Shown here in pieces: positions 784 through 24,418 of a stretch of 25,098 bases of DNA. The stretch is taken from the NCBI GenBank assembly GCA_038209745.1, contig JBBQXJ010000071.1:1-25098 (forward strand). The letters are read 5' to 3'. Under the pieces are notes generated by a model. That model made no database searches, was not told the DNA's origin, and worked only from the letters and a program-made list of their open reading frames with translations. Made by a program: the position numbers and the translations under genes. The DNA comes from Verrucomicrobiota bacterium. GTDB lineage: Bacteria > Verrucomicrobiota > Verrucomicrobiia > Limisphaerales > CANJSG01. Position 1 is the first letter of the stretch, and each line of letters starts with the position of its first letter.

Positions 784-797
784 ACGAAGACTTTTTC

Positions 798-1063
798 AAC
801 CACAGATGGACACAGATACACACAGATGGGGAGTGGACCAGAAGACTCCCAGCCTGTCCTCGAAGCCTGAGCGGCTCGTCGGTAGGGCTGCGCTACCGCG
901 CTGCCCACACATCCGGAAAAAACCAGCGCAGCGCAGGTTCCTCTCGGGAGTTCGTTCTCCGGCCGAGAGGTTGCGTCCAGACTCAGGCTTGGGCTGGGAG
1001 CCTGACCGACTGGGCACGGCCGGCTTTCATTTCATCTGTGTTGATCTGTGTCCATCTGTGGTT
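798..1063. repeat. 266-bp element bounded by 31-bp inverted repeats made of three 10-nt CACAGAT-nnn units (MITE/REPIN-like)
   Basis: 798-828 AACCACAGATGGACACAGATACACACAGATG versus the reverse complement of 1033-1063 AACCACAGATGGACACAGATCAACACAGATG: 29/31 identical. Additional inner inverted 9-mers at 846-854/992-1000 and 863-871/982-990. Confidence 0.9.
881..906 (+). repeat. GTAG-headed REP-like hairpin
   Basis: GGTA-GGGC-T-GCGC-tacc-GCGC-T-GCCC: GTAG head followed by an 8-bp stem with one T/T mismatch. Same GGTAGGGCT head as 13825. Confidence 0.65.
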
Positions 1064-1074
1064 CTTTCGCTCCC

Positions 1075-1338
1075 GTGACCCCCATTGAACAACAGCTGCT
1101 CGACGAACTCCTCGCCTACGAGGACACGGTACGTCGTCTGCCCGCGCTGAATCCAAAGCCCAGCCTGCTCGCGATCTTCGAGAAGCTGGACGGAATGACC
1201 GCGCAACTGCCGCGCGGCACTTCGCCGGACCTGCTGCACTTCCTGCACAAGAAGAGCTACGAGAAGGCGCGCATGTGGCTTCAAGATCGGCGCGACGAGA
1301 TCGCACGCGGCGGCTGCGATGGGAAGGCGCAGCACTGA
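1075..1338 (+). CDS. Small hypothetical protein (~87 aa), predicted helical
   Basis: GTG start at 1075 just after the repeat element. Typical high-GC3 codon usage, co-oriented with the flanking genes, motif LLHFLHKKSYEKA. The ORF-track start at 1048 falls inside the repeat. Confidence 0.7.
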   Translation: MTPIEQQLLDELLAYEDTVRRLPALNPKPSLLAIFEKLDGMTAQLPRGTSPDLLHFLHKKSYEKARMWLQDRRDEIARGGCDGKAQH

Positions 1339-1364
1339 AGACTGTTCACTGGCTACTGAATACT
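1334..1364 (+). repeat. Heptamer tandem array (ACTGnnn x4)
   Basis: ACTGAAG ACTGTTC ACTGGCT ACTGAAT ACT. The first unit contains the TGA stop (1336-1338) of the upstream ORF. Confidence 0.7.
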
Positions 1365-1386
1365 TGGGCTGATACCTGACGCCGCC

Positions 1387-2754
1387 ATGTTCAACGACAC
1401 CATCGCCGCCATCGCGACGCCGCTCGGGGAAGCCGGGATCGCCGTAATCCGTGTTTCCGGAAACCAAGCGCTCAGTCTGGCGGATCAATGCTTTGAGCCA
1501 GCGAGCATCTCCGCGACGAAGCCTTCAGCGGCCGCGTCGCACACGCTGCACTACGGGCACATCGTTCGAAGCGGTGCCCGCGTGGACGAAGTCATGTTGG
1601 CCGTGCTGAAAGCACCCCGGACCTTCACCCGGGAAGACACGGTGGAGATCTCCTGCCACGGCGGCGTGCTCACGACCAAGCTGGTCTTGGATGCCGTGCT
1701 AACGGCGGGAGCCCGCTTGGCTGAACCCGGCGAGTTCACGCGTCGTGCTTTTCTCAACGGCCGCATCGATCTCACCCAGGCCGAAGCGGTCGCGGATCTG
1801 ATCCACGCCCGCACCGAACTGGCCGCCCAGGCCGCCGGCGAACAGCTCGCCGGCAAACTCTCGGCCCGGATCAACGTTCTCCGCGACGACCTTCTCCGGG
1901 TCTTGGCCCACGTCGAGGCGCACATCGATTTCCCCGACGAGGACATTTCGCCCGACACCCAGAAGGAACTTCTTCGTAAACTCGATGGCGGCATCGCCTT
2001 CATCGACGAACTGCTGCGCACGGCCGACGAAGGCCAGATCCTGCGGCGCGGGATCCGGGCGGCGATCATCGGCCGTCCCAATGCGGGCAAGTCCAGCCTG
2101 CTGAATCTGTTGCTGGGCCACGACCGCGCCATCGTCTCGCCCATCGCCGGCACCACGCGCGACACGATCGAGGAGACGGCCAACATTCGCGGCATTCCCG
2201 TGATCTTCATCGACACCGCCGGACTGCGCGAAGCCTCGGACTCGATCGAGCAGGAAGGCATCCGTCGCAGCCGGACGAGCGCGGCGCGGGCGGATCTGGT
2301 GCTGCATTTGATCGACGGCTCAGAGCCGTTGCACCCGGAAGACGCGGGTTGGCTGAAGGAATTTGCGGGCAAGAAGCGGATCCTCGTCTGCAACAAGTGC
2401 GACCTCCCGAAACGGGCCGGGCTGTCGATCGAGGGTGCCACGATCGTGGAGGTCAGCTGTGTGACCGACGCGGGTTTTGAATCGTTGAAGGACGCGATCA
2501 AAGCCGCCGTCTGGTCCGGGGATATCGCCGGGGATCCGCTCCAGATCATGATCAACTCGCGCCATCAAGAAGCGCTGCAACGTGGTCGTTCGGGAGTCGT
2601 CCGCGCGGCGGAGGCGCTGCGGAGCGGGTTGACACTGGAACTGGTCGCGGCCGATCTGCGGGGTTCGGTACAGGCGGTCGGGGAGATCGTCGGAAAGACT
2701 TCGACGGAGGATCTCCTGGACTCGATCTTCAGCCAGTTCTGCTTGGGGAAATGA
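1387..2754 (+). CDS. mnmE: tRNA modification GTPase MnmE (TrmE)
   Basis: N-terminal DTIAAIATP..GIAVIRVSG, FTREDTVEISCHGG, PGEFTRRAFLNGRIDLTQAE, G1 GRPNAGKSS, GTTRD, DTAG, NKCD and C-terminal FCLGK. Confidence 0.98.
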   Translation: MFNDTIAAIATPLGEAGIAVIRVSGNQALSLADQCFEPASISATKPSAAASHTLHYGHIVRSGARVDEVMLAVLKAPRTFTREDTVEISCHGGVLTTKLVLDAVLTAGARLAEPGEFTRRAFLNGRIDLTQAEAVADLIHARTELAAQAAGEQLAGKLSARINVLRDDLLRVLAHVEAHIDFPDEDISPDTQKELLRKLDGGIAFIDELLRTADEGQILRRGIRAAIIGRPNAGKSSLLNLLLGHDRAIVSPIAGTTRDTIEETANIRGIPVIFIDTAGLREASDSIEQEGIRRSRTSAARADLVLHLIDGSEPLHPEDAGWLKEFAGKKRILVCNKCDLPKRAGLSIEGATIVEVSCVTDAGFESLKDAIKAAVWSGDIAGDPLQIMINSRHQEALQRGRSGVVRAAEALRSGLTLELVAADLRGSVQAVGEIVGKTSTEDLLDSIFSQFCLGK

Positions 2755-2755
2755 T

Positions 2756-2900
2756 GGAGCGCGGACGGTCACGTCCGCGAGGTCTGCCTCGACAACGTCG
2801 AGCGATCTCTTCTTGTCATGGCGACAAGCAACAACGACGGGTTTGACTCCGCTTGTTTCCTCGTTGGACGCCGCCTCGCGGACATGGCCGTCCGCGCTCC
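2756..2900. repeat. Inverted pair of GGAG-headed REP-like palindromes (REP doublet) between convergent genes
   Basis: 2756-2782 GGAGCGCGGACGGTCACGTCCGCGAGG versus the reverse complement of 2874-2900 GGAGCGCGGACGGCCATGTCCGCGAGG: 25/27 identical. Each copy is itself a CGCGGAC...GTCCGCG hairpin. Confidence 0.9.
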
Positions 2901-3322
2901 TATCGTGTCGCCGACTCCACCGCTTGCGGCTTCTTGGCCTCCTTCACCTTCTCGCTGTAGGTGATCAACGCGGCCCCGATGAGAATGAACGCAACTCCGC
3001 TCCAGCGCATGGGACTCACGGTTTCGTTCAGGACCAGCTTCGCGGCGATGGTGGTGAAGACGAAGCTGAGGGCGGTCATCGGCCAGACGAAACTGACGTC
3101 GGCCTGGCTCAGGAGATAGAGCAGCCCACCGAAGAACGCCGCTTCCAGGGCGATTCCGGCAATCATCCCCCGATTCGTGGCGGCGGCTTTGGCCAATCGC
3201 CAAACCTCCGGGAACGAGACATCTTTCAGCACGCCGATTTCCTTCATGGCGCGGCTGAGCAGGACGACTCCAGCGGCTTCGCAAGCGAGCCCGACGAGAA
3301 TGATGATGAGGAATTTTGTCAC
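2900..3322 (-). CDS. Small EamA/SMR (DMT superfamily) membrane transporter, ArnE/ArnF-like
   Basis: 140 aa with four hydrophobic helices and the DMT-type motif LSQADVSFVWPMTALSFV...LVLNETVSPMRWSGVAFILIG. The GTG start overlaps the hpnK stop (GTGA). Confidence 0.8.
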   Translation of the reverse strand: MTKFLIIILVGLACEAAGVVLLSRAMKEIGVLKDVSFPEVWRLAKAAATNRGMIAGIALEAAFFGGLLYLLSQADVSFVWPMTALSFVFTTIAAKLVLNETVSPMRWSGVAFILIGAALITYSEKVKEAKKPQAVESATR

Positions 3323-4200
3323 AGGTCTTGGTGGCGAATGAGACGGATCCCGGCCGCGGCAACCGCCCGGCGGACCCGGGGGCTGATCAACGCGGCCGTT
3401 TCATGGGCAAAGTCGGTTTCCGAAGGGTGCGAGTAAAGTTCCGAGTCGCCGGCGGGCAGGCACGGGAGCAACCGGAGGAGGAAGTCTTCGTGGACGCGGC
3501 CATTTTGGAGGAGACCGAAAACCCTGTCGGTGTGGCGGATCCCGGCGCGACGCAGCTTCGGTCCAGCCCAGGCGCTCAACATCCGGAAAATGAGCGCGTG
3601 GCTGCATCGGTAGGTCCACTCGCCGCCCGCCAAGCGGGTGTTCAGCCAAAACGGATCGACGGTCAGCCGAAGACGACGGATGCCCCACTGATCCGCCTTG
3701 CGCAGCAGGACGCGAAGGACCGTCGGGTGCAGGTGGAAATTCAGGTGCCCATCGACGTGGTCGAGGACGAGACCCGTCGCACGGAAGCGCTCAAACTGGA
3801 GGGACAATTCCTGCTCGATCCACGTTTCCATGGACCGGTCGAAGAAGAACTGGAAGCCGGCTTGAACGGGGGACATCGGCGAGCAACCCGCATTCAACTT
3901 CGAACATGCAACGCCCAACGCGGAGGCTCTTCGACGCTGGTTGTGGGTCGTTGGTTGTTGGTTGTTTGCAGAGGTCCTTCCTCCGACCAGAACCAAGTGC
4001 AGCCCGACTCCAAGTCTTGGATTCTCACGGGCCAATTGAACCGCCTCGTCGGCGAACGGCTCGTTCACCATCAGGCTGGCGGTGGTGAGGATGCCGTCGC
4101 GATGGGCGCGGATGACGGCGGAATTGATCGAGGGCGAACGACCAAAGTCGTCGGCGTTGACGATGAGCCGGCGGATCCTTGTTGAAACGAAGCCCCTCAT
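3319..4200 (-). CDS. hpnK: ChbG/YdjC/HpnK-family deacetylase, hopanoid-associated HpnK
   Basis: LIVNADDFG, GILTTASLMV, GVGLHL, LDHVDGHLNFHLHP and ELYSHP motifs, directly downstream of hpnD. ATG at 4200 chosen because the 4227 start lies in a repeat. Confidence 0.88.
   Translation of the reverse strand: MRGFVSTRIRRLIVNADDFGRSPSINSAVIRAHRDGILTTASLMVNEPFADEAVQLARENPRLGVGLHLVLVGGRTSANNQQPTTHNQRRRASALGVACSKLNAGCSPMSPVQAGFQFFFDRSMETWIEQELSLQFERFRATGLVLDHVDGHLNFHLHPTVLRVLLRKADQWGIRRLRLTVDPFWLNTRLAGGEWTYRCSHALIFRMLSAWAGPKLRRAGIRHTDRVFGLLQNGRVHEDFLLRLLPCLPAGDSELYSHPSETDFAHETAALISPRVRRAVAAAGIRLIRHQDL
3896..3966. repeat. Opposed heptamer arrays inside the hpnK coding sequence
   Basis: AACTTCG AACATGC AACGCCC AACGCGG (3896-3923) and GGTTGTG GGTCGTT GGTTGTT GGTTGTT (3939-3966). 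Confidence 0.75.
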
Positions 4201-4201
4201 G

Positions 4202-4326
4202 TTTGAAGAGGAGCTAGCAGGGAACACGGAGGAGAACCGAAAAGATCGGCTGCATGGTCATCGGTCTGGCAGGAAGTCTTCCACTGCTTTCCTGTGCTCC
4301 GCTTCCTCGGCTGGCTCCTGTTCAAA
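4202..4326. repeat. Inverted pair of degenerate 9-nt-unit (CAGAG-type) repeats between hpnD and hpnK
   Basis: 4202-4231 TTTGAAGAGGAGCTAGCAGGGAACACGGAG versus the reverse complement of 4297-4326 TTTGAACAGGAGCCAGCCGAGGAAGCGGAG: 23/30. A related pair lies at 17029-17192. Confidence 0.7.
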
Positions 4327-4345
4327 ACCTCAGGGGTTCACCCGT

Positions 4346-5215
4346 TCAGGCCGGCCCATAGTTCGGGGTCAGCATGCCGGCCGAGAGACGGAACCAGGTG
4401 CGGCCGATGAGAAGGATCTTCTGCAGCTTGTTCAACCGGGTCAGAGAGGGGCCGAAGACGTTGAACTGCCGCTGCTCCAGTTTGGCCAGCAGACGCCAGT
4501 AGACGGAGCCCATCAGCTCGGCGGCGATCATGTTGCGCCGATCGGCGGTGGGCAGGAGCTCACGGGCCTTGGCGTAGTGGAAGCGGGCACGCTCCCCGAC
4601 GCTGAAGGCGAGGTCGCGGAATTCCGGGGTGTAGTGGCCGTGCAGAATATCGTGCTCGGACACCTTGAAGCGACGGAGCTCCTCCAGCGGGAGGTAGATC
4701 CGGCCGCGTTCGGCATCGACCTTCACGTCCCGCAGAATATTGGTGAGCTGGAGCGCTTGGCCAAGGTGGACGGCGTATTCGCGGCACTTGGGATCGGTGT
4801 AGCCGAAGATCTCGATGCTGAGGAGGCCGACGACGGAGGCGACGCGGTAGCAGTATTGCTCCAAACCGGCGTAGTCCTCGTAGCGGACGGTATCGAGGTC
4901 GGTTTCGCACCCGACGATGAGCTCGTCGAAGAGCTCGAACGGCAGCCGGTATTGGCGGATGACCGACTGAAGCTCCTGGTTGACGCCCATCCGCGGCTTC
5001 TCGGAACCGCAGGCGCGACGGATGTCGTCACGCCATTCTTGGAGACCCTTGCGGCGGTCGACGACGGATCGGGACTCCTCGTCGGCCACATCGTCCACCT
5101 CGCGGCAGAAGGCGTAGAGCGCGGCCATGCCCTCGCGCTTGGGCTTGGGCAGGAGGATGAAGGCCAGCGCGAGATTGGACGAACTCTTGCGGGTGATGGC
5201 CTCGGACTGCTCCAT
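4346..5215 (-). CDS. hpnD: Squalene/phytoene synthase family, presqualene diphosphate synthase HpnD-like
   Basis: ALYAFCREVDDVAD (DDxxD), YCYRVASVVG, LGQALQLTNILRDVKVDAERGRIYLP. Adjacent to hpnK. Confidence 0.85.
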   Translation of the reverse strand: MEQSEAITRKSSSNLALAFILLPKPKREGMAALYAFCREVDDVADEESRSVVDRRKGLQEWRDDIRRACGSEKPRMGVNQELQSVIRQYRLPFELFDELIVGCETDLDTVRYEDYAGLEQYCYRVASVVGLLSIEIFGYTDPKCREYAVHLGQALQLTNILRDVKVDAERGRIYLPLEELRRFKVSEHDILHGHYTPEFRDLAFSVGERARFHYAKARELLPTADRRNMIAAELMGSVYWRLLAKLEQRQFNVFGPSLTRLNKLQKILLIGRTWFRLSAGMLTPNYGPA

Positions 5216-5218
5216 GGA

Positions 5219-5631
5219 TCAGAGCTCGGGGTTCTGACCGGGGTCGCGCAAAGGCGGGAGGCCGCCGGTATCCGCCAACGTCGGGTTGTTGACGCGCTGG
5301 ACGCTGGTGGTGCCGTCGCTGGAGCGCTTGTGGCGCCGATGATGCCGCTTTCCGCGATGCCCCGACGATTCCCCGGTCGACGGATCCACCCGGGCAACGC
5401 CGTCCTCGCCCGCTTGATACTTGGGATAGGACGACCTTTTCTTGACCGGCTTCCGATAGGCCCTCTTGGCCACGAGAAAAATGATGATAGAGAGGATCAC
5501 CAGGATCCCGATGACGATGCCGGCCTCTTTCAGGCCGCTGTTCTTCATGGATTCCCACCAACCGCCCGATGTCGGGGCCGTCGTGGTGCGCCCGGTCGTG
5601 CCGAGCTGTGCAAGTAATCCGACGATAGCAT

Positions 5632-5635
<4 letters not shown>
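5219..5635 (-). CDS. Hypothetical single-pass membrane protein with basic cytoplasmic tail
   Basis: TM segment AGIVIGILVILSIIIFLVA followed by a Lys/Arg/His-rich region and the C-terminal motif NPTLADTGGLPPLR. ATGA overlap with the upstream regulator stop, 3-bp gap to hpnD. Confidence 0.75.
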
Positions 5636-7059
<1,424 letters not shown>

Positions 7060-8462
7060 CGTCGGTTTGCAGGAGGCTTTTTGAGGGGAAGACGAGGACG
7101 AAGCGAGCCCCTTGTCCGACGGCCGATTCGAGGCGGACCGACCCTCCATAGAGCTCGGTGTTGTGCTTCACGATGGCGAGCCCCAGTCCGGATCCGTTTT
7201 CCTTCGTCGAAAAACTGCTCTCGAAGACGCGCTCCATCCGCTCCGGAAGTATGCCAGGACCGTTGTCCTCGATCACCACCTCCACCGAACGGTTGGATCC
7301 GTTCGAGGCACGGATGGAGACCACGCCCGAGTCGCCCAGCGCTTCGCGGGCGTTTTGGAGGAGGTTCACGAAGATCTCCCAGAGATGGATCCGCTGCATC
7401 AGGAGCGCGGGCAGATCGGGCGAGAAGCTTCGCCGGACCTGGATCCGGAACGCGGCCGCCGGCGGAAACACCTCCTGGATCGCCCGCTCCAGTTCCTCGA
7501 CCACAACGAGCTTCTCCACCTTGCCGTCGGCCAGTTTCGCATAGCCCATCAGCTCGGTGAGAATCCGGTCGGAACGGGTGACTTCTTCCCGGATGATGTC
7601 GAGCTGGGCCTGGGCCGGTTCGCTGCGGATGGAGCGCTGGAGAACAAAGGCGGCGTTGGTGATGATCGCGAGAGGATTGCGCAGCCGGTGGGCGATCTCG
7701 GCGGAAATGCGGCCGGCCGTGTGCAGATGCTCGGTGCGGGCGAAGATTTCCGCCGCCTCTTCGCGGTCATGGCGGCGTTTTTCCATGAGGATCTGGGCCC
7801 CGTGCGCGCAGACCGCGGTCAGAACCAGCACGACAACGCGCAGCAGGAAGGGCTCCGCAGGACCTCCTTGATTGGTCGACTCGAAAGCGCGACGGATGTC
7901 GGGATCGATCATGTTGATCTCCTCCGCGAGGATTCCCACATCGACCAGCCCGGCGATCAGGTAGAGCAGGCACACACAGACGTTCAGAGCCACCCCCGGT
8001 GTCGTGTGCTGGAGGCTGATGGTGTGGCGGACGATCAACACCAGGAGCATCCAGAAAAGGATGCTGTCGAAGCCTCCGGTGAGCAGCGTCAACGCGCAGA
8101 CCAGCAACGTGTCGAACAGGCCCCCCGCGAAGATCAACCACTCCAGCGCCGTCGGTGGGATCCGCTTCACCCCGAAAATGATCGCCCCAAAGACGCCTTG
8201 AACGGCGATGTAGACCAGCAGCAGGTGCTGCAGGGTTTCGACCACGAGATCGCGGGTGAAAATGGCTTCGTCGAACCAGGAGCCGCCGAAGAAGACCAGG
8301 TAGAGGATGATCACCGCCCCGAGCCGCACCGGGAACACCACGTCCCGCTCGATCCGCCGCGCCCTCGCCGCGCCCCCTTGGCCGATCGGTGCGCTGACCG
8401 CCTTGAGCAGTCCCCCCAGCCCGTCCTTGATCAACTGTCTCGCGGCGCGGGCCATACCGGCG

Positions 8463-9011
8463 TCAGGTCAACAGGTGCTTCACCCGTTCCGCGATGCGGT
8501 CCACCGGCCAGAGCCGCCCGACCCCTTCATAGCCGCAGGAGAGCATCCCCTCCTCCGGTCCGATGAACTCGACGCCCCGCTGCTTGAGCGTCGCGACGTT
8601 CGCCTGCGTGGCCGGGTGGAGCCACATCTTGCCGTTCATCGCCGGGGCCACGAGCAACGCCGCCTTGGGCTGTAGGGCGAGGGCGATGCAGCTGAGCGCA
8701 TCGTCCGCCAATCCATGGGCCAGCTTGGCCAGGACGTTGGCCGTCGCCGGAGCCACCAGGAACAGGTCCGCTTCGTCCGCCACGCGGATGTGCGAGGGCT
8801 TCCAGCCTTCCTCCTCGTCGTAAAGATCGGTGATGACCGGTTGGCGGGACAGGGTCTTGAAGGCCAGCGGCGTGATGAACCGCTGCGCGTCCGCCGTCAT
8901 CACGACCGTCACGGCAAAGCCCGCCTTGGCGAGAAGGCTCGTCAGGTCCGCGGCCTTGTAGGCGGCGATCGATCCGGTGACTCCGAGGACGACGTTCTTG
9001 GGAGTGCTCAT
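8463..9011 (-). CDS. coaC: Phosphopantothenoylcysteine decarboxylase (standalone CoaC flavoprotein, no CoaB domain)
   Basis: VVLGVTGSIAAYKA, APATANVLAKLAHGLADDAL, APAMNGKMW, LSCGYEGVGRL. Ends at about 182 aa. Start ATG 9011 (alternative TTG 9032). Confidence 0.9.
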   Translation of the reverse strand: MSTPKNVVLGVTGSIAAYKAADLTSLLAKAGFAVTVVMTADAQRFITPLAFKTLSRQPVITDLYDEEEGWKPSHIRVADEADLFLVAPATANVLAKLAHGLADDALSCIALALQPKAALLVAPAMNGKMWLHPATQANVATLKQRGVEFIGPEEGMLSCGYEGVGRLWPVDRIAERVKHLLT

Positions 9012-9024
9012 GCGTTGGGGCGGT

Positions 9025-9651
9025 TCAATCAAAGCTCGGCGCCGTCGACCGGGCCTGCTTCATCCTCTCGGCCAGGATGATGGCGCGGGCGCGCCGGACA
9101 TCTTCGTTGATGCTCGTGCTGATCAGGAGGTAGTCGAAGTGTTTCCATTGCGCCAGTTCCTGCCGCGCGACGCTCAGGCGCTTCTGGATCACCGCGGCGA
9201 CGTCCGTGCCGCGCTTGTTCAGGCGGCGCTCCAGTTCGGACATTGAGGGCGGAGTCAGGAAAACGCAGACCAACGCGCGCCGCAGCTCCTCGTCCTCCTT
9301 CGCCTTGGCCTGGATGGCGGCCGCGCCCTGCACGTCGATGTTCAACAGCACGTCGCGACCGGAACGCAGCTTCGCCACCACCTCGCTCTTCAAGGTGCCG
9401 TAGCTGTTGCCGTAGACCGTGGCGTGTTCGAGGAAGTTGCCCGCCTGGACCCGCCGCAGGAAATCGCCCGCTTCCAGGAAGTGGTAGTCCACCCCGTCCT
9501 TCTCGGACTCGCGCGCCGCCCGGGTCGTGCAGGTCACCACCCGGGTCATGTTCGACTCGGCGGCGATCAGCTGCTGGCAAAGCGTCGTCTTGCCGCCCCC
9601 GGAAGGAGCGGAAATGACGATCAACAGGGCTTGGGATTTTCCGGTCTCCAT
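9025..9651 (-). CDS. gmk: Guanylate kinase
   Basis: ISAPSGGGKTT P-loop, TTRAARESEKDGVDYHF, YGNSYGT, IDVQGA, FLTPPS. Confidence 0.97.
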   Translation of the reverse strand: METGKSQALLIVISAPSGGGKTTLCQQLIAAESNMTRVVTCTTRAARESEKDGVDYHFLEAGDFLRRVQAGNFLEHATVYGNSYGTLKSEVVAKLRSGRDVLLNIDVQGAAAIQAKAKEDEELRRALVCVFLTPPSMSELERRLNKRGTDVAAVIQKRLSVARQELAQWKHFDYLLISTSINEDVRRARAIILAERMKQARSTAPSFD

Positions 9652-9655
9652 GGTC

Positions 9656-10531
9656 TCACTCCACGTTCTGGGCCTGCTCGCGGAACTTTTCGAGCTCGGT
9701 CTTGAGCACGACCACTTCGCGGGAAATCACCGCGTCGTTCGCCTTGGCGCCGATGGTGTTGATCTCGCGGTTCATCTCCTGTGACAGAAAATCCAGGGTG
9801 CGGCCGACCGCGTCCTTCGAACCGGAGATCGTCTCGAACTGCGCGAAATGGCTCTTCAGCCGGGCCAGCTCCTCGCTGATGTCGGAGCGGTCGGAGTAGT
9901 AGACGATCTCCTTCAACAGCCGCTCGTCGTCCTCCGCCGGCAAAGGCAGCCCCGCCGCCGCGACGCGTTCGCGAAGCTGTTCGCGGAACCGCACCATCAC
10001 CTGCGGAGCCTGGGCCGCGACCCGCGCCACCGCCCCGGACAGCTCCGTGATCCGCGCCCGCAGATCGACGGCGAGATGCGCGCCTTCGCGCTCCCGCATG
10101 GAGACAAGATCCTTCAACGCCGCGGTCAGCGCCGTGCGCACGATCGGCCAGACCGTTTCCGGGTCCTGCGCAGAGGCGGCCACTTCGACAATGCCCGGAA
10201 CGCGCAGGACATGCTCCAGACTGACGGCTCCCAAGTTCAATTCCTTGGCCAATTCTCCCAGCTGCGCCGCGACGGAACGGGCCAATACGGCGTTGATGCG
10301 GGTGGGAGGAACGGACCCGGCACCGCATTCGAGCGCCACCCGGCAAGTGACCCGCCCACGGGACACCACGCGGTTGATCTCCTCGCGGACACGGGATTCG
10401 AGCACATCGAGCTCGCGGGGAAGGCTCAGGGCGATCTCCGATTGCTTGCGGTTCACGGAGCTGGTTTCGACGGTGATTTTGAGCCCCTCTTGGGACGCTT
10501 CACCCCGTCCGTAGCCGGTCATCGACTTCAT
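9656..10531 (-). CDS. yicC: YicC/YloC family endoribonuclease
   Basis: MKSMTGYGRG, SVNRK, DISEELARL, GRTLDFLSQEMNREINTIGAK and REQAQNVE. Conserved position upstream of gmk. Confidence 0.95.
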   Translation of the reverse strand: MKSMTGYGRGEASQEGLKITVETSSVNRKQSEIALSLPRELDVLESRVREEINRVVSRGRVTCRVALECGAGSVPPTRINAVLARSVAAQLGELAKELNLGAVSLEHVLRVPGIVEVAASAQDPETVWPIVRTALTAALKDLVSMREREGAHLAVDLRARITELSGAVARVAAQAPQVMVRFREQLRERVAAAGLPLPAEDDERLLKEIVYYSDRSDISEELARLKSHFAQFETISGSKDAVGRTLDFLSQEMNREINTIGAKANDAVISREVVVLKTELEKFREQAQNVE

Positions 10532-10555
10532 TGAGCGAGGGACTATGCGGAGGGA

Positions 10556-10597
10556 CCCGGTTGGGCGGAAGCCATTTCCCGGCGTCGGCCAACCGGG
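10556..10597. other. Hairpin between the PVC-type protein gene and yicC
   Basis: CCCGGTTGG (10556-10564) pairs with CCAACCGGG (10589-10597), with further imperfect pairing inside. No U-tract. Confidence 0.4.
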
Positions 10598-10610
10598 ACC
10601 GCCAGCCGGC

Positions 10611-13600
10611 CTATTCTCCGCCGCCCAGCATCGCCCGCTTTTCCGGCGTCAACGGGCCTTCCTGCGGCGGCGAGAGAATGAACCAGATCAGGTTCCGGAA
10701 ATCCGCCTCGGGCATCTGCTCCAATCCTTCGGGCATGGCCGAAAGCTGGGTCACGGTCAGGTTCTTCACCTTGGACTTGTCGATCACGGCTTCGCTCGGG
10801 CCGGCCATGACCAGCTTCACGTGGGTCGCGGTGTTTTCGGTCATGCGGCCGCTGAAGACCTGGTCGTCCTTGGTCTCCACTTCGACCTGTTCATAACCGG
10901 CGCCGATGATTTCGTTCGGGTTGATGACGTTGTGCAGCAGGGCATCCAGCGAGCTGCGACCGACCCCGGTCAAGTCGGGCCCGACGTCCCCGCCTTCTCC
11001 GTAGAGCTTGTGGCAGATGAAGCAGTTCCGTTGGGCCACTTCATGGCCGGCCGCGAGGTCGATCGGGCCGGCGACCACGACCTTCCGCTTCGCGGCGATG
11101 AGCTTGAGTTTCTCTTCGCTCGACTGGTTCACGCGGCCGAACAGCTGGATGGCCTTCTGCCGCTCGTTGTCGGCCTTGGAGGTGGCCAACGAGCGGATGA
11201 CGGTCGGCGGAATGTCGCCGCGCTTCACTTCGCCGCGCTCGATGGCGGCGTAGAACGGCCATTTCCAATTGCCGCGCGTGGTGCAGAGCTCGGCCACGGC
11301 GGCGCGGACGGTGGGTGAGAGCGTCGCCCACTTGGCCAGCAACTGCTGCGCGGTGTCGTCCTCGCCCACGTCCGCCATTCCGCGCACCGCTTCCACCTTG
11401 AGCGTCTCAGAAGCGTTCCCGCTGAATACGCCCAGCAACGCGGCGCGCGTCTCATCCGTCTTCAACCGCCGCGCGGTGCGGATGGCCGCGATGCGATCGG
11501 CTTCGCTGGCGGACGCATCCGTGATGCGGGCCAAGCTGGCCCGAACCGCCGAAGCGTCGCCCCAGAGCGAACCCACTTCCTGGGCGGCCTTGGCCAGTTC
11601 GGGATTGGAGGACTGGGCCAGCCGCGAAACGACCGCGATCGCCCCGGTGTTCGGCACCAAGATTTTCCCGCGCTGTCCGTCGAGCAACCCTTGCAGGCCC
11701 GCGATGAGAGTCGAAGCCGCCGACTCGGGAATCCCACCGAACTCGATGACCGAGCGGCTCAACGTGTCTTCATCCCGCAGATCGCAGACGCGGTGCATGA
11801 TCTTGGTGAGCAGCTTGGCGGAGAACGGTTGTTCCTTCACTGCGCCATCCCGTTTGTAGGCGCCGATCCCATGGACCGGATCGAAGGCGATGATCGGTTC
11901 CAAGGCCATCCAGTAGAGAAAATCGAGAACCGGATCGTTCTCTTCCTTGGTCCGATCCTGGTGACCGACGAAGAGCGCGCTCAAAATCGGTCCGGTGACG
12001 ACTTCAGGGATCGGCACCTTCGGCGGCGTGTCGATGGTGAGAGCACCGGAGACAAACTGCCGAGCCGCGACCGTCACCCCCAGCCGAACACCCGGATCCG
12101 GATCCTTGGCCAAGGTCGACAACCGCTGCATCGCATCGCCCAGAGGAAGCCCCCGCTCGCCGGTCAAACGGGCCGCCCAGGTGCGGAGGCCCGGGGCCTT
12201 GTCTTCCGCGGCCTTGTCCAAGTCGCCGTCGTTCAGGAACTGCATTCCATGCAGGGTCCAAAGCGCGGCCAATCGTGCGTCGGGATTGGGACCTTCCTCG
12301 AACATCTTGTGCAGCGACGTTTCCGGATGGAGGGATCGGGAACCGAATGCGCCGGGGCCGCGCTCGGTCAACAACCGCTGGGCCATGCGGCGCTGCCACA
12401 CATTGTCGTTGGCCAATTGCTGGACCAATTGATCGGTCGAAAGCTTCGCCAGATCCATGTCCACCGACGGACGGCTGGGCACGGGCTTTCCAGTTTCCTT
12501 GCCCGTGTAGACCACGCGCCAGATGCGGCCGAGTTCGCGGTCGACGCCTTCGGGATCGGCCACGGCGTTCTGGTAGCAGGGATAGCGGTCATACCAGTCG
12601 CTGATCCAGACGGCGCCGTCGGGCCCGACCCGTTGCATGGTGGGCCGGAACCAACCGTCGTTGGCCCGGACGAGGTCCTTCCACTCCGAAGCCACGAAGC
12701 TCGAACCCTTCGGCGTCAACTTGTCGGCGTGGACCGAGTTGTCGTGGATGTTGCCCATCAGCGCGCGCCCGCTCCATTCGGCCGGAAACTGGTTTCCCTG
12801 ATAGATCTGCACCCCGCAATAGGCGGCCATCTTGTGCCGGTGATCGACGATCGAGGGCAGCAGCTCGTAGGCATACGGGAAGTTCGGCTGGCCCGCCTGC
12901 CGCGCATACAGACCGCCGGGGACCAGATGGAAGAAGTGGTCGATGACGCAGGCGCTGACGAAGGCGTTGCCGCGCGCGTCGAAGTCCACGCCCCAGGGAT
13001 TGCTCGTGCCGTCGGCGAAGACCTCGAACTTCTTCGTCCGCGTGTTCAGCCGGGCCACGGCGGCGTTCATCAAGACGCCGTCGTCGTCGGGGTCGTTCGG
13101 GTTCTTCACCGTCGAGTAGGTGAAGACGCCGTGGGTCATGTAGAGATCGCCCTCCGGTCCCCAGGTGAAGCCGTTCAACAGCTCGTGCCGGTCCTCGCTG
13201 CCGAAACCGGTCTTGAACACTTCGCGCTTGTCCGCCCGGTCGTCGCCATCGGTGTCGGAAAGGAACAGCAGGTCGGGCGCTTGGCCGACGTAGGCCCCGC
13301 CATCGCCGAGCAGCAGCCCGGTGGCGAGGCTCAGACCGTCCGCCCAGACGTGGACCTTGTCCGCGACGCCGTCGCCGTCCGTGTCTTCCAGGATCTTGAT
13401 GCGGTCGCGGCCCTTGGTCCCGGGCGCGGCGCCTTTGGGATATTCATAGAGCTCCAAGACCCACAGCCGGCCGCGCGCGTCCCAGGACATGGCGACGGGA
13501 TTCACCACCATCGGTTCAGCGGCGAAGATCCGGATCTCGAACCCTTCGGGCAGCGTGAACTTCTTCTGCGCCTCGGCTGGTGCCAGCGCGGGGGTCGAAG

Positions 13601-13757
13601 CCGGCGCGTGCTGGCCGCTGATCTGCCGGCCGATCGGCGCGTTGGTGTAGACCGGAAAATCGTAGCTGCGGGCGCGGAAGTCCGGCGTGGCGGCGGCGGC
13701 GAGGCTGGCGGCGAGACATCCACCGGCAAACAGGATGGGGCGAAGATCGGGCTTCAT
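10611..13757 (-). CDS. PVC-type heme-binding CxxCH protein (membrane-bound dehydrogenase-like beta-propeller, HEAT repeats, C-terminal c-type cytochrome)
   Basis: Signal peptide from ATG 13757 (MKPDLRPILFAGGCLAASLAAA). FTLPEGFEIRIFAAEPMVVNPVAMSWDARGRLWV, EDTDGDGVAD, NPWG, ISDWYD, HEAT-like repeats, CFICH..GGDVGPDLTG and SAMPEGL. Confidence 0.93.
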   Translation of the reverse strand: MKPDLRPILFAGGCLAASLAAAATPDFRARSYDFPVYTNAPIGRQISGQHAPASTPALAPAEAQKKFTLPEGFEIRIFAAEPMVVNPVAMSWDARGRLWVLELYEYPKGAAPGTKGRDRIKILEDTDGDGVADKVHVWADGLSLATGLLLGDGGAYVGQAPDLLFLSDTDGDDRADKREVFKTGFGSEDRHELLNGFTWGPEGDLYMTHGVFTYSTVKNPNDPDDDGVLMNAAVARLNTRTKKFEVFADGTSNPWGVDFDARGNAFVSACVIDHFFHLVPGGLYARQAGQPNFPYAYELLPSIVDHRHKMAAYCGVQIYQGNQFPAEWSGRALMGNIHDNSVHADKLTPKGSSFVASEWKDLVRANDGWFRPTMQRVGPDGAVWISDWYDRYPCYQNAVADPEGVDRELGRIWRVVYTGKETGKPVPSRPSVDMDLAKLSTDQLVQQLANDNVWQRRMAQRLLTERGPGAFGSRSLHPETSLHKMFEEGPNPDARLAALWTLHGMQFLNDGDLDKAAEDKAPGLRTWAARLTGERGLPLGDAMQRLSTLAKDPDPGVRLGVTVAARQFVSGALTIDTPPKVPIPEVVTGPILSALFVGHQDRTKEENDPVLDFLYWMALEPIIAFDPVHGIGAYKRDGAVKEQPFSAKLLTKIMHRVCDLRDEDTLSRSVIEFGGIPESAASTLIAGLQGLLDGQRGKILVPNTGAIAVVSRLAQSSNPELAKAAQEVGSLWGDASAVRASLARITDASASEADRIAAIRTARRLKTDETRAALLGVFSGNASETLKVEAVRGMADVGEDDTAQQLLAKWATLSPTVRAAVAELCTTRGNWKWPFYAAIERGEVKRGDIPPTVIRSLATSKADNERQKAIQLFGRVNQSSEEKLKLIAAKRKVVVAGPIDLAAGHEVAQRNCFICHKLYGEGGDVGPDLTGVGRSSLDALLHNVINPNEIIGAGYEQVEVETKDDQVFSGRMTENTATHVKLVMAGPSEAVIDKSKVKNLTVTQLSAMPEGLEQMPEADFRNLIWFILSPPQEGPLTPEKRAMLGGGE

Positions 13758-13824
13758 ATAGGTCAGGGCGTTGGCCGATTGGAACGGGAGAACGGCCGAG
13801 ACGCAATGAGCGGATGGGGCAATT

Positions 13825-13978
13825 GGTAGGGCTACGGCTCCCGCCGAGCCGCCTTGGTTCGAGCGGAGAGAGGCGGCCGGAGGGAGCATTTCGGCCAATC
13901 GTGCGTCTCGTGAGAAGATCGCTCCGCTCGCACCGCCTGCGGCGGTAGATGGGGACGCCTCGGCGTGGCGTCCCTGCC
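13825..13978. repeat. Two inward-facing REP-like hairpins in the leuS / CxxCH-gene intergenic region
   Basis: 13825-13851 GGTAGGGCTA-CGGCTC-ccgcc-GAGCCG on +. 13952-13978 reads on - as GGCA-GGGACGCC-acgccga-GGCGTCCC (perfect 8-bp stem). Confidence 0.65.
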
Positions 13979-13985
13979 GGGGCTG

Positions 13986-16943
13986 CTACCCCACCACGAT
14001 GTTCACCAGCTTCTTGGGCACGATGATGATCTTCTTCACCGTCTTGCCTTCGAGGAATTGCTGCGCTTTCTCGGACTTCAGCACCATCTGCTCGATCGTC
14101 TCTTTCGAGGCATCGACCTGGATGCGGATGACGTCGCGGAGCTTGCCGTTCACCTGCACGGGAAACTCGATCTCGGTCTCGACCAGCCGCGCGGGATCGA
14201 ACGTCGGCCACGGGGCGTAGCTCAATGACACATTTTGAATTCCAAATTTTGTATTGGTCTTCGCCCAAAGCTCCTCCGCGAGATGCGGCGAGAAGGGCGC
14301 GAGCAGCTGCACGAAGGTGCGGTAGACGCTGGCGGGCTTCACCTCCCAGCCCATGGCGTCGTTGATGAAGACCATCATGGAGGAGATGGCGGTGTTGAAG
14401 CGCAGGCCTTCCAGATCCTCCGTCACCTTCTTGATGCAGGTGTGGAGGGTCTTGAGCTGCGCGGGCGTGGCGGGAACGTCCTGGATCGCGGCGGAGAGCT
14501 GGATCTGGCCAAGGAACGTCGCGCTGTCGCCGTGGGCGGCGGCGGCCTGTTCGTAATCGGTCTCGCTGGCTTCGTCGACGAAGGCGCGCCAGACGCGGCC
14601 GAGGAAACGGTAGACGCCTTCGACGCCCTGGGTGTTCCAGGGTTTGGTGTCCTGGAGCGGGCCCATGAACATCTCGTAGAGGCGGAAGGCATCGGCGCCG
14701 AACTCGCCGATCACGTCGTCGGGGTTGACCACGTTGCCGCGGCTCTTGGACATCTTCTGGCCGTCGGAGCCGAGGATCAGGCCCTGGTTGACCAGCTTGT
14801 AGAACGGTTCGGCGGTGGAGACGTGGCCGAGGTCGAAGAGGACCTTGTGCCAGAACCGCGCGTAGAGCAGGTGCAGCACGGCGTGCTCGGTGCCACCGAC
14901 GTAGAGATCGACACCGGGCGTTGTGCCGGAGTTTTCGGTTTTCAGGGTCGAGTGTTCAGACTGACCACTGGCCACTGACGACCGGGCACTCGCCGCCGTT
15001 CCCATCCAGTAGCTCTCGACGTCCTTGCCGACGAAGCCGGCGGCGTTCTTCGCGTCGAGGTAGCGGAGGTAATACCAACAGGAACCGGCCCACTGCGGCA
15101 TAGTGTTGGTCTCGCGGATGGAGCCGTCGAGCAAGTGCAGCCACTCCTTGGCCCGGGCCAAGGGCGGCTGGCCGTCGGCGGTCGGCTTGTAGTCCTCCAA
15201 GGTCGGCGGGAGGAGGGGCAAGGCGCTCTCGGGCAGGGCCTCGTGGTAGAGCTGCCCGTCAGCGCCCTTCTTCCAAATGATGGGGAACGGTTCGCCCCAA
15301 TACCGCTGCCGGCTGAAGAGCCAGTCGCGCAGCTTGAAATTGACCGTCTTCTGACCAAGGCCCTTGGACTCCAGCCACGCGGTGATTTTAGCTTTGGCTT
15401 CGGCGGTGGGGAGGCCGTTGATGTCCGGAGGCGAGAAGTCCCAGGGCAACCGCTGTTGATCCTTCGGCAGATTCATGTCTTCCAATCGCCAGCCGTGGGA
15501 TGGGGACTCGAATGCGACGCCCTCTTCGCAGAATGGGGCTTCCAAGGGACCGATCGCACCGCCCTTGAGGTCTTTGGGAATGACAACTTGATTGATCGGT
15601 AGATTGAACTTCTTGGCGAACTCGAAATCCCGCTCGTCGTGCGCGGGCACGGCCATGATTGCGCCGGTGCCGTAGGTCGCGAGGACGTAGTCGGCGATCC
15701 AGATGGGGATCTTCTCGCCGTTGACCGGATTGATGGCGTAGGCGCCGGTGAAGACGCCGGACTTTTCCTTGGCCAGTTCGGTGCGCTCCAAGTCGGACTT
15801 GGTAGTGGCGAATTCCTGATACTTCTTCACCGCCTCCGCCTGCTCGGGCGTCGTGATCTGAGCGAGCAGCTTGTGTTCGGGCGACAGGACCATGTAGGTC
15901 GCTCCGAAGAGCGTGTCAGGTCGCGTAGTGAACACGCGGATCTTGGCAGCGTGTCCATCCAGCTTGAAATCAACCTCTGCGCCCTCTGACCTTCCGATCC
16001 AGTTCCGCTGCATTTCCTTCAGCGAATCGGACCAGTCGATGGTGTCGAGATCGGCCAGCAGGCGCTCGGCGAAGGCGGTGATGCGGAGCATCCATTGGCG
16101 CATCGGCTTGCGGATGACGGGGAAGCCGCCGACCTCGCTCTTGCCGTCGATGACTTCCTCGTTGGCCAAGACGGTGCCCAGCTCAGGGCACCAGTTGACC
16201 GGGGCTTCGCTGACGAAGGCGAGGCGCTTGGAGTCCACGTAGGCGCGGCGTTTGGCTTCCAACTCGGGAGGGCAGCAGGCGGGGGCGCCTGCTGGACTGG
16301 TCACAGGCGGGGGCGCCTGTGCCACTACCACTCCCGTTACGCCTTCCGGCCAGGCCAGCGCGTCGGGATACTTCAGCGTGCTGATCGGCTCGGCCTTGTT
16401 GGTCTCGGGGTTGAACCAGCTGTTGTAGATCTGGAGGAAGATCCACTGGGTCCACTTGAAATACCCGGGGTCGGTGGTGGCGACTTCGCGGGACCAATCG
16501 TAGCTGAAGCCGAGGCTTTTGATCTGCCGGGTGAAGTTCGCGATGTTCGCCTCGGTGGTCACGCGGGGGTGCTGGCCGGTCTTGACCGCGTATTGCTCGG
16601 CGGGCAGGCCGAAGGAATCCCAGCCCATCGGATGCAGGACGTTCCTGCCCTGCGACCGGCGGTAGCGGGCGAGGATGTCCGTGGCGGTGTAGCCCTCGGG
16701 ATGGCCCACGTGCAGGCCGGCGCCGGAGGGATAGGGGAACATGTCGAGGATGTAGAACTTCCCCGGAGCCTGGCCGGCGGCGATCTTCTCGGGGCTCATC
16801 GCGTCGGCGCCGTGGCGTTGGGCGAAGGGATGGCTGGCGGGCACGGCGTCGGACGGATTCCAGGCGCGGAAGGTCTGTTCCGCGTCCCAGTGCTGCTGCC
16901 ACTTGGGTTCGATGAGATGAAAGGGATACTGCCGGCGCGACAT
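13986..16943 (-). CDS. leuS: Leucyl-tRNA synthetase (985 aa, with several insertions)
   Basis: [14 protein letters not shown] (HIGH), editing domain FTTRPDT and [59 protein letters not shown]. Start ATG 16943 (MSRRQYPF). Confidence 0.98.
14232..14255. repeat. AT-rich heptamer array inside leuS
   Basis: ATTTTGA ATTCCAA ATTTTGT ATT, an abrupt AT-rich patch in a GC-rich gene. Confidence 0.5.
14931..14990. repeat. Opposed heptamer arrays inside leuS
   Basis: GTTTTCG GTTTTCA GGGTCGA GTGTTCA (14931-14958) then ACTGACC ACTGGCC ACTGACG ACCGGGC ACT (14960-14990). Confidence 0.75.
16273..16328. repeat. REP-like palindrome doublet inside leuS
   Basis: CAGCAGGCG-gggg-CGCCTGCTG (16273-16294) and CACAGGCG-gggg-CGCCTGTG (16302-16321), followed by CCACTAC (a GTAG head on the - strand). 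Confidence 0.85.
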
Positions 16944-16953
16944 AAGGCCGGGC

Positions 16954-16981
16954 ATCATGGGAAAGCGGCTTTTCAAGGCAA
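16954..16981 (-). promoter_or_regulatory. Possible sigma70-type promoter immediately upstream of leuS
   Basis: On the - strand TTGCCT-16 nt-CATGAT, ending 10 nt before the ATG. No Shine-Dalgarno visible. Pattern match only. Confidence 0.3.
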
Positions 16982-17028
16982 TCGCGGAGTTCAACGGCGG
17001 AGTGATTCGGCCGGGAGCAAACCATTGC

Positions 17029-17192
17029 TTTGGCCAGGAGACCGCAGAGAAAGCAGAGGAAGACAGACAGGCTTTTCGTGAGCCATCCGTCATGGAGGGG
17101 CATTCCCCGACCAACGGCTTACGGCCTGCCGTGCGACGACGGCATGTTTTTCCGGCCCGGCGCCCTGCTTCCTCTGTTTGCTCCGGTTCGAA
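17029..17192. repeat. Inverted pair of degenerate 9-nt-unit (CAGAG-type) repeats in the divergent leuS / repeat-protein intergenic region
   Basis: 17029-17058 TTTGGCCAGGAGACCGCAGAGAAAGCAGAG versus the reverse complement of 17163-17192 TTCGAACCGGAGCAAACAGAGGAAGCAGGG (20/30). The latter matches the 4297-4326 arm at 23/30. Confidence 0.6.
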
Positions 17193-24357: not shown

Positions 24358-24418
24358 ACCGATACGACGGGCAGCACCCGTCACGCGTAGGCGACGAGCC
24401 GACCGGAGCGCGGACCCA

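Follow-up and report, generated by a model that had tools for sequence, protein, structure and literature searches.

Gene-less hairpin insertions among the core genes of a Verrucomicrobiota contig, and their probable ties to gene-bearing cassettes

The stretch of DNA analysed here, referred to below as the window, is 25,098 nt of a Verrucomicrobiota genome, G000 (contig JBBQXJ010000071.1; C71 of a 140-contig, 4.58-Mb assembly, 63% G+C). Short repeats that fold as hairpins stand at a number of its gene junctions and in frame within some of its genes. On balance they are probably best explained as several independent populations of gene-less hairpin insertions, comprising classical palindromic repeats together with hairpins whose arms are arrays of short tandem units (“array hairpins”), the latter being tied to gene-bearing cassettes. 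Comparison of orthologous loci in a set of 31 genomes (7 of the genus and 24 others) shows that the elements are insertions, which are found at stop/start junctions and within protein loops tolerant of them, and that the occupants of one site differ between species. Each genome's gene-less population of decamer-armed hairpins has the 7-nt core of a resident GxxExxY cassette, and this core changes in concert in all units, in both arms and throughout the genome-wide population. The repeats had first been described from the letters of the window (the sequence-only reading) as three families of one system. All of them were found where that reading had placed them, but they do not form one system: at least four independent dispersed families are involved, four unrelated ones (A to D) being present in the window, along with hairpins confined to single loci.

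The junction between ydjC and the gene for a squalene/phytoene synthase (SQS) illustrates the comparison of filled and empty sites. It is empty in G001, G003, G004, G005 and G023, with an overlap of a few bases between the genes, while G000 has a hairpin of about 150 bp and G010 an unrelated one made of CTTAATC-type arrays. The G000 hairpin (4190..4342) has degenerate 9–10-nt arms, is placed exactly at the junction, and provides the present start codon of ydjC; 4198–4340 folds with a z-score of -4.2 (z-scores here and below are from RNA folding against 200 shuffles). Read on the coding strand, its upstream edge has TGA in all three frames and its downstream edge gives the ydjC ATG (edges 4318–4345 and 4190–4210), so that the insert terminates the gene before it and opens the one after it anew. 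Between cysH and cysD there is a 24-nt spacer in G001, G003 and G004, a gene-less family A hairpin in G005, and a GxxExxY cassette with CACGRAT arms in G000 and G006.

Other junctions give the same pattern. Immediately upstream of the conserved leuS leader, G000 has a hairpin at 17036..17192, in the divergent intergenic region between leuS and the gene for a 795-aa protein, with decayed decamer arms of the CGCAGAGAAA/GCAGAGGAAG type (17036–17185, z -3.0). The corresponding position is occupied in G004 by a hairpin of CGCAGA type together with a CACGAAG arm, in G001 and G006 by CGCGAAG arms, in G002 by a family B arm plus heptamers, and in G005 by a plain hairpin with no arms. Upstream of a small open reading frame (ORF), orf96, CGCGAAG/CACGAAG decamer hairpins are found in G001, G003, G004 and G006 and none in G005; at the dnaK-orf96 junction the congeners have another upstream neighbour, and no clean comparison can be made. 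Downstream of mnmE, congeners carry an element armed with GAAGGCC heptamers where G000 has family B. Orthologous sites that are empty, differently filled or filled by a cassette mark these elements as inserted DNA with turnover; a comparison of filled and empty sites was the test that the sequence-only reading had put forward.

Within genes, that reading had counted four copies as keeping the frame. Three sites hold confirmed in-frame copies (leuS 16263–16361, leuS 14931–14990 and ydjC 3896–3966), and these are true insertions into variable protein loops, in line with its suggestion that the repeats are a source of such loops. An arm at 17029 is not intragenic: in an alignment with 24 relatives the true start of LeuS is the conserved MSRRQYPF (~16950), so the first ~55 codons of the long leuS ORF, including this arm, are non-coding. 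That the copies keep the frame is uninformative in essential genes because only in-frame insertions survive there; one out of frame in leuS would be lethal.

The leuS segment at 16263–16361 belongs to dispersed family D and lies in a loop that G003, G005 and at least five other orthologues lack; unrelated segments fill it in the remaining ones. As a dispersed palindrome in frame and absent from orthologues, it resembles the Rickettsia palindromic elements (RPEs). A second leuS insertion (14925..14995, minus strand; z -3.1) consists of inverted heptamer arrays with ACTGNCC/TTCAG units in the loop between YWMG and GVDLYVG. This loop is 21–27 nt in G005, G006 and three others. It holds in-frame inverted-heptamer hairpins in G008, G013, G011 and G017, with motifs that are all different and minimum free energies of -31 to -51 kcal/mol, and direct heptamer runs in G010, G023 and G003. 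In G009 (locus L059) it holds a 582-nt in-frame segment with 52% G+C vs 57% for the locus, encoding a PBECR3 nuclease domain (barnase/EndoU/colicin-E5/RelE-like; E 8e-20). A third hypervariable segment of LeuS, at residues 518–563 (15426–15563), ranges from 0 to ~45 unrelated residues in relatives, with no repeat evident in G000.

In ydjC, a heptamer array of TGGTTGT/ACAACCA units (3896..3968, minus strand) replaces a conserved loop with a segment ~16 aa longer, found only in G000 and G002 among 21 orthologues. The region 3893–3970 is a genuine heptamer array and insertion, with a hairpin that is not significant (z -1.2). MnmE has been struck in relatives: that of G020 has a family D repeat in frame, that of G030 a 42-residue hairpin insert, and those of five aligned congeners a CATCCGG-type heptamer segment, with two full units in two of them.

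Dispersed repeats were mapped with 16-mers occurring at least three times in the genome, a 13-mer map being too noisy. In the window they are 793–818 with 1043–1063 (28 copies), 2756–2782 with 2885–2900 (20 copies), 13834–13857 (11 copies) with 13926–13950 (5 copies), and 16275–16329 (9–10 copies). The sequence-only reading had treated the GTAG/GGAG-headed hairpins as one class; it lumps at least three unrelated families. Family A is represented between dnaK and orf96 (795..1066) by a hairpin with CACAGAT decamer arms at 798–827 and 1034–1063, each of three 10-nt units. Its 206-bp interior is hairpin-rich and unique to this copy, and the whole folds at -138 kcal/mol. The family arm, AACCACAGATGGACACAGATGAACACAGAT, consists of three decamers and has 56 matches in the genome at up to 8 mismatches, including 21 convergent pairs of 86–859 bp that each fold as one long hairpin. 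The interiors in G000 are unrelated in sequence and length, and no target duplication is visible beside the arms of its pairs.

Family B lies between the convergent mnmE and an EamA-family gene (2756..2900, z -6.9). It is a doublet like the REPINs formed by repetitive extragenic palindromes (REPs), with two inverted 26-nt units, GGAGCGCGGACGGTCACGTCCGCGAG, at 2756–2781 and 2875–2900 and a gap of 93 nt. The arm, itself a small palindrome, has 45 matches at up to 5 mismatches vs 0 in the reversed genome. There are 16 convergent pairs, six with gaps of 44–46 nt and four with gaps of 104–105 nt, and the interiors are mostly unalignable. A family B doublet is nested in the centre of the family A copy at C26:13448. 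Family C (13825..13985) is the remnant of a GTAG-headed miniature inverted-repeat transposable element (MITE) of ~155 bp. Its left terminal inverted repeat (TIR), GGTAGGGCNACGGCTCCCGCCGAGCCGCC, lies at 13825–13857; beyond it another GTAG-headed hairpin directly adjoins the stop codon of leuS. There are ~45 TIR matches genome-wide, many in full 155-bp inverted pairs, and the window retains one good TIR. The longest array in the genome, at C36:377–456, has ~11 tandem CTGACGA heptamers and adjoins a GTAG-headed TIR.

Family D is the REP doublet in the leuS loop (16268..16332, minus strand; z -3.8), made of two CAGGCGGGGGCGCCTG hairpins and a GCCACTAC tail; its unit is found at 17 genome sites. 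At C11:4578–4805, family D doublets stand on both sides of a Y1_Tnp (PF01797) domain, which is the classical arrangement of REPs with a REP-associated tyrosine transposase (RAYT). The proposed RAYT link is borne out to this extent: the REP found in frame within leuS also flanks a Y1/HUH (RAYT-like) gene at another place in the genome. At this locus (C11:4400–5250) the domain and its REP doublets lie within a 1694-codon open frame, between two halves of what are apparently sugar-nucleotide enzymes. There are five Y1_Tnp matches in the genome. Among the flanks of the 4 Y1_Tnp loci read, none has GGAGCGCGGAC or GTAG-headed repeats on both sides of the gene, and beside the Y1_Tnp gene at C12:6880 a CGCAGAT-type array stands on a single side.

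The four array hairpins and arrays at 4190–4342, 17036–17192, 14925–14995 and 3896–3968 are single-copy in the 16-mer map, and in arms and layout they are like the cassettes of this genome. The genome has three PF13366 (GxxExxY) genes and six PF05635 (four-helix-bundle) genes, most of them bracketed by inverted arrays of short tandem units with a locus-specific motif. At C32:44674 a GxxExxY gene is flanked on either side by a 138-bp CACAGAT (family A) hairpin, the two being almost identical. The four-helix-bundle cassette at C95:3855 has arms of GGTTGT/ACAACC heptamers, the same motif as in the ydjC array, and that on C12 has arms of GCCGGAT heptamers, the commonest heptamer array in the genome (37 of 80). 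In a census of tandem arrays of at least three units there were 200 in the genome vs 50 in a block-shuffled genome: 80 vs 22 with period 7, 21 vs 20 with period 8 and 34 vs 2 with period 10. Partners within 1.5 kb were more often inverted than direct (19 vs 4 for period 10, 23 vs 13 for period 7). Of the 34 decamer arrays some 22 have the CACAGAT motif, and a further five at least have those of the remaining two GxxExxY cassettes (CACGAAT and CGCTGATC). Across the genus, 15 flanks of four-helix-bundle genes have a clear array, with period 7 in 13 of them, and GxxExxY flanks have period 9–10, a pairing of unit period with gene family that holds for this genus only.

The sequence-only reading had linked similar 9–10-mer and 7-mer arms to GxxExxY and four-helix-bundle genes elsewhere; in this genome and genus the 9–10-mer arms do match those of GxxExxY cassettes and the 7-mer arms those of four-helix-bundle cassettes. 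It had also taken the window elements to be gene-less, and no GxxExxY or four-helix-bundle gene was found by Pfam inside the window. Those at its stop/start junctions are cassette-like in being inverted arrays of 7–10-nt tandem units and fall short of full membership in having no gene. Array hairpins appear to be the gene-less form of GxxExxY (9–10-nt units) and four-helix-bundle (mostly 7-nt units) cassettes. In the loci examined, no transposase gene is bounded by decamer or heptamer arms. A test for intragenic arrays, requiring an open frame spanning ±150 nt with coding-like G+C at third codon positions, scored 43 of the 80 heptamer arrays as intragenic, an upper bound that is not relied upon, as 4 probably intergenic CACAGAT arms were scored so as well.

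The distribution of arm cores across genomes tends to follow that of the cassettes. Family A arms are found in all 7 genus genomes (53, 9, 32, 4, 7, 36 and 14 matches) and in 7 of the 24 from other genera, with 0 throughout in a reversed-pattern control, and the two genomes with CACAGAT-armed cassettes (G000 and G005) hold the two highest counts, 53 and 36. CRCGAAG arrays number 0 in G000 and 4–24 in six congeners. Within the genus, GxxExxY cassettes are found at a small number of conserved junctions, and their cores (CGCAGAA, CGCAGAT, CACGAAG, CGCGAAG, CACGGAT, CACAGAT) follow the protein lineage. Orthologues of the C32 protein in nine other genera (50–89% identity) keep the arm format TTNAACC-(core-NNA)x3, with cores of the form CNCNNAT, and in at least G009, G010 and G030 the C32-type cassette stands upstream of the same neighbour gene. 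The core is CACAGAT in G000 and G005; CGCAGAT in G009, G010, G017 and G030; CACGGAT in G023 and G016; CACGAAT in G018; and CGCGAAT in G007 and G024. As predicted beforehand, the four genomes with CGCAGAT cassettes have 59, 22, 20 and 11 CGCAGAT arrays, and the other 27 have at most 4 (G000 has 0). Among heptamers, two-unit GCCGGAT arrays are genus-specific, with 10–32 in each of the 7 congeners and at most 3 in each of the other 24 genomes.

The reading preferred here is that a gene-bearing cassette may act as a long-lived master, which would either seed gene-less copies or supply the nuclease that mobilises them, a role comparable to that of RAYT for REPINs. The arms could pair in DNA or RNA, looping the insert out with little harm to neighbouring genes, and in-frame copies would last only where the added 10–40 residues fall in a surface loop. 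The putative mobilisation in trans by cassette proteins has in its favour that the arm core co-varies across genomes.

A number of observations weigh against this. The gene-less CGCAGAT elements of G009 (L146–L157) are uniform copies of 165 bp that share their whole sequence; 9–10 of the 12 copies fetched have a 5-bp direct target duplication (for example TTCAA, ATGAA and TTAAC), which is direct evidence of transposition. They carry an outer terminus, CCTAAATCCGGCAGTTG, found at 43 sites, behind which stands a hairpin of the CGCAGAT or of the CACGGAT kind. An ordinary transposase rather than the nuclease may be responsible in that genome, and with this terminus and these duplications its high count is not clean support. 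The corresponding prediction for CACGGAT had a mixed outcome: G030 (84), G009 (67) and G020 (35) lead, and the predicted genomes G023 (30), G016 (11) and G006 (9) rank 4th, 6th and 8th; G009 has a second cassette, at C259, with CACGGAT arrays on both sides. G002 has 32 CACAGAT matches and no CACAGAT-armed cassette was found in its assembly, which is 79% complete. G001 has 22 GCCGGAT matches and no PF05635 match in a 93%-complete assembly, which counts against strict dependence on a resident four-helix-bundle gene.

Arms also bracket other cargo. CACAGAT arms at C12:13287–14145 enclose two unknown ORFs, and at C38:6422–7093 inverted GGAGCGCGGAC arms surround a 620-bp segment of lower G+C whose product, of 161 aa, is a dual-specificity phosphatase (polymorphic-toxin-associated Tc-R-P type, E 3e-22); here a REPIN-like frame holds a passenger gene. 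With unrelated interiors and no visible duplication, copy-and-paste of whole elements is not shown for family A in G000. The likeness of arms only may mean that centres were replaced after insertion, that arms spread by another route, or that the copies are old; nested insertions are seen among G000 copies. In contigs of strains ~2–3% diverged, from metagenome runs X2, X5 and X19, the 798–1063 element is kept with 3 substitutions, and no joint removing any element at its own locus was found there, so these strains give no excision or insertion polymorphism. Joints from 827/829 to 1034 in these contigs are other family A copies, one of which matches the copy on C27. No run listed as containing this DNA is recorded as RNA. 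Finally, the genomes compared are relatives and hence non-independent samples.

Some of these points would be expected if ordinary transposases move the hairpins (DDE enzymes leaving 5-bp duplications for the arrays, Y1/RAYT for the REPs) and the cassette genes are frequent passengers. Genes and gene-less copies would then share arms by riding the same non-autonomous element, in the style of mobile insertion cassettes. The duplications and common outer terminus in G009, the phosphatase and the two unknown ORFs between arms, and the five Y1_Tnp matches in the genome all speak for such passengers. Such an origin is nevertheless thought doubtful, if a serious possibility: no transposase gene stands between decamer or heptamer arms in any examined locus, the arm core co-varies with protein lineage, and a GxxExxY cassette kept with intact arms upstream of the same neighbour across several genera fits a master better.

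For the single-copy elements (4190–4342, 17036–17192, 14925–14995 and 3896–3968), production in situ by slippage and template switching, with no transposition, would account for four loci that have no second copy in the genome and each a motif of its own, as well as for the leuS loops of G010, G023 and G003 that have direct heptamer runs and no inverted partner. It is improbable as an explanation of 70–165 bp of new sequence appearing at once at junctions where the genes of relatives overlap. Nor would it predict a layout and unit length equal to those of the dispersed families and cassettes, or the excess of inverted over direct partners at both periods. That the hairpins are host regulatory parts kept by selection (terminators, RNase III sites or operon insulators) would suit their exact positions at gene boundaries, strong folding and conservation in strains 2–3% apart, and the start codon and three-frame TGA supplied by the 4190–4342 insert. 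Orthologous junctions work without hairpins in most congeners, though, the occupants of a given site are unrelated in sequence, and copies also lie within coding sequence; scans of the window with Rfam at gathering thresholds, and for tRNA and tmRNA, gave no matches. A regulatory origin, too, is given little credence.

The master-cassette reading can be taken further, to a proposal that is ventured tentatively and is itself rather unlikely: that the GxxExxY gene, of the PD-(D/E)XK type, and the decamer-array hairpins form a second partnership like that of REPIN and RAYT, one of a non-HUH kind. A single nuclease gene, inherited vertically and lying between its own arms, would read a CNCNNAT core once per helical turn and maintain genome-wide gene-less hairpins, which would seed new loops in essential proteins. 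The core of the population would drift with the protein, as from CACAGAT to CGCAGAT, CACGGAT and CGCGAAT.

REPINs, as Bertels & Rainey present them (PMC3116915 and PMC3337134), are REP doublets accompanied by a single-copy Y1 HUH transposase. The elements here resemble them in being short inverted doublets that fold as a hairpin with a spacer less conserved than the arms, in having tens of copies and one gene flanked by the same repeat, and in that the gene is vertically inherited at a fixed locus while families turn over between species. Dispersed short palindromes are present (GGAGCGCGGAC at 45 sites, the GTAG TIR at ~45 and CAGGCGGGGGCGCCTG at 17), as are inverted doublets, and the leuS-type REP truly flanks a Y1_Tnp gene. 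The array hairpins differ: the gene flanked is PF13366 or PF05635 instead of a Y1 transposase, and the arms are tandem arrays of 7–10-nt units instead of a single palindrome, around interiors of 26–800 bp. MITEs, in the part of PMC10969869 that concerns them, are bounded by terminal inverted repeats and lack a transposase gene, and passenger genes are carried by some copies. The uniform 165-bp copies of G009 with their 5-bp duplications resemble them, whereas in G000 copies have only the arms in common, without a visible duplication, and no cognate transposase came to light. The REP/REPIN and MITE descriptions suit families B, C and D.

RPEs, described in a section of the same source (PMC10969869), are palindromic repeats in frame in unrelated housekeeping genes, to which they add a peptide segment. 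The window likewise has palindromic repeats in frame in housekeeping genes, but in another phylum and with several unrelated kinds of repeat, tandem-array hairpins included, and the same loop has been struck independently in many lineages. ORF-bearing intervening sequences (IVSs) of 23S rRNA, such as the Coxiella IVS with S23p covered in part of PMC4990558, involve both gene families, with inverted arms whose pairing loops the insert out of the host transcript; the window copies differ in being gene-less and in lying in mRNA leaders, operon junctions and coding sequence, not in rRNA.

Heterocystous cyanobacteria have short tandemly repeated repetitive (STRR) heptamers. The GCCGGAT arrays are similar as genus-specific dispersed tandem heptamers and differ in belonging to another phylum and in often forming inverted pairs and agreeing with the arms of four-helix-bundle cassettes. 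Heptameric repeats are reported to be in excess in bacteria (PMC4692102). Searches of the literature on GxxExxY, where the name is only mentioned, and on intervening sequences, four-helix bundles and inverted repeats turned up no account of array-armed cassettes or gene-less satellites. What is added here is that every resident cassette has a gene-less population to match, that arm cores co-vary across genomes, that filled and empty sites can be compared cleanly, and that the same loops of LeuS, MnmE and YdjC are struck in frame repeatedly. If the preferred reading is true, the GxxExxY and “23S rRNA intervening sequence” four-helix-bundle families, which are very common and unexplained, would gain a role, as resident genes of hairpin elements that form a widespread class, and many unexplained intergenic hairpins and short tandem arrays of Verrucomicrobiota would be their gene-less offspring. 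LeuS, MnmE and YdjC are concrete cases outside Rickettsia of essential enzymes that gained loop segments from repeat DNA. For annotation, the repeats flag false N-terminal extensions, as in leuS, and explain contig breaks at repeats.

Motif counts in the genome were compared with the reversed genome and two first-order Markov genomes. The sequence-only reading had expected its motifs to exceed chance, which holds for CACAGATNNACACAGAT (53 vs 0 in the reversed genome, 0 and 0 in the Markov genomes) and for the GGAGCGCGGACGGTCACGTCCGCGAG arm, but not for ACTGNNNACTG, with no enrichment (55 vs 38–71 in controls), or GAACAGGAGNNANCAGAG, with 0 copies genome-wide. The short form GGAGCGCGGAC has 35 matches vs 3–19 in controls, about 27 of the 35 falling in extended family B, and GGTAGGGC has 115 vs ~59 in the two Markov genomes but 449 in the reversed genome. 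Of about a dozen loci originally described, four are chance or unsupported (881, 1334, 14232 and 24405). The hairpin at 881 has no second copy in the 16-mer map and is merely interior to the 798–1063 element. The plus-strand match at 24405..24415 is an 11-nt chance match to GGAGCGCGGAC, with the sequence beyond unlike family B. At 14232 there is no insertion relative to orthologues (14215–14265, z -1.9). The plus-strand run of ACTG-type heptamers at 1334..1376 is unsupported as an element, its motif being unenriched and 1330–1385 folding at z -0.1; it begins at the orf96 stop codon and resembles one arm of the four-helix-bundle cassette at C3:13253 (ACTGAAG heptamers). An integron attC reading, suggested by ends of the form AAC...GTT, was dropped, the copies being scattered singly among core genes with arms of tandem decamers; no integrase search was made.

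Genes of the window were placed by Pfam matches. The 3' end of dnaK (1–783) is followed on the same, plus strand by orf96 (~1075–1338, its ORF at 1048–1338; ~87 aa, no Pfam match) and mnmE (1387–2754). On the minus strand are the EamA-family gene (2900–3322), ydjC (3319–4227) and SQS (4346–5215). A two-component pair, a flavoprotein gene, gmk and yicC lie between SQS and a gene for a DUF7133/HEAT protein (10611–~13800, minus strand), which is followed by leuS (13986–~16950, minus strand; start set by MSRRQYPF). The 795-aa protein (17285–19672, plus strand) has good coding statistics and no Pfam match at E 0.01; dnaB, bamA, ompH and a NIPSNAP protein gene come last. Since orf96 is conserved directly ahead of mnmE in ~20 of the 29 relatives from the order, it was rejected as element cargo and is a core gene, an uncharacterised partner of mnmE. 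In one contig from run X2 the orf96-mnmE spacer (1324–1377) has seven small deletions and many substitutions, far more than the flanking genes.

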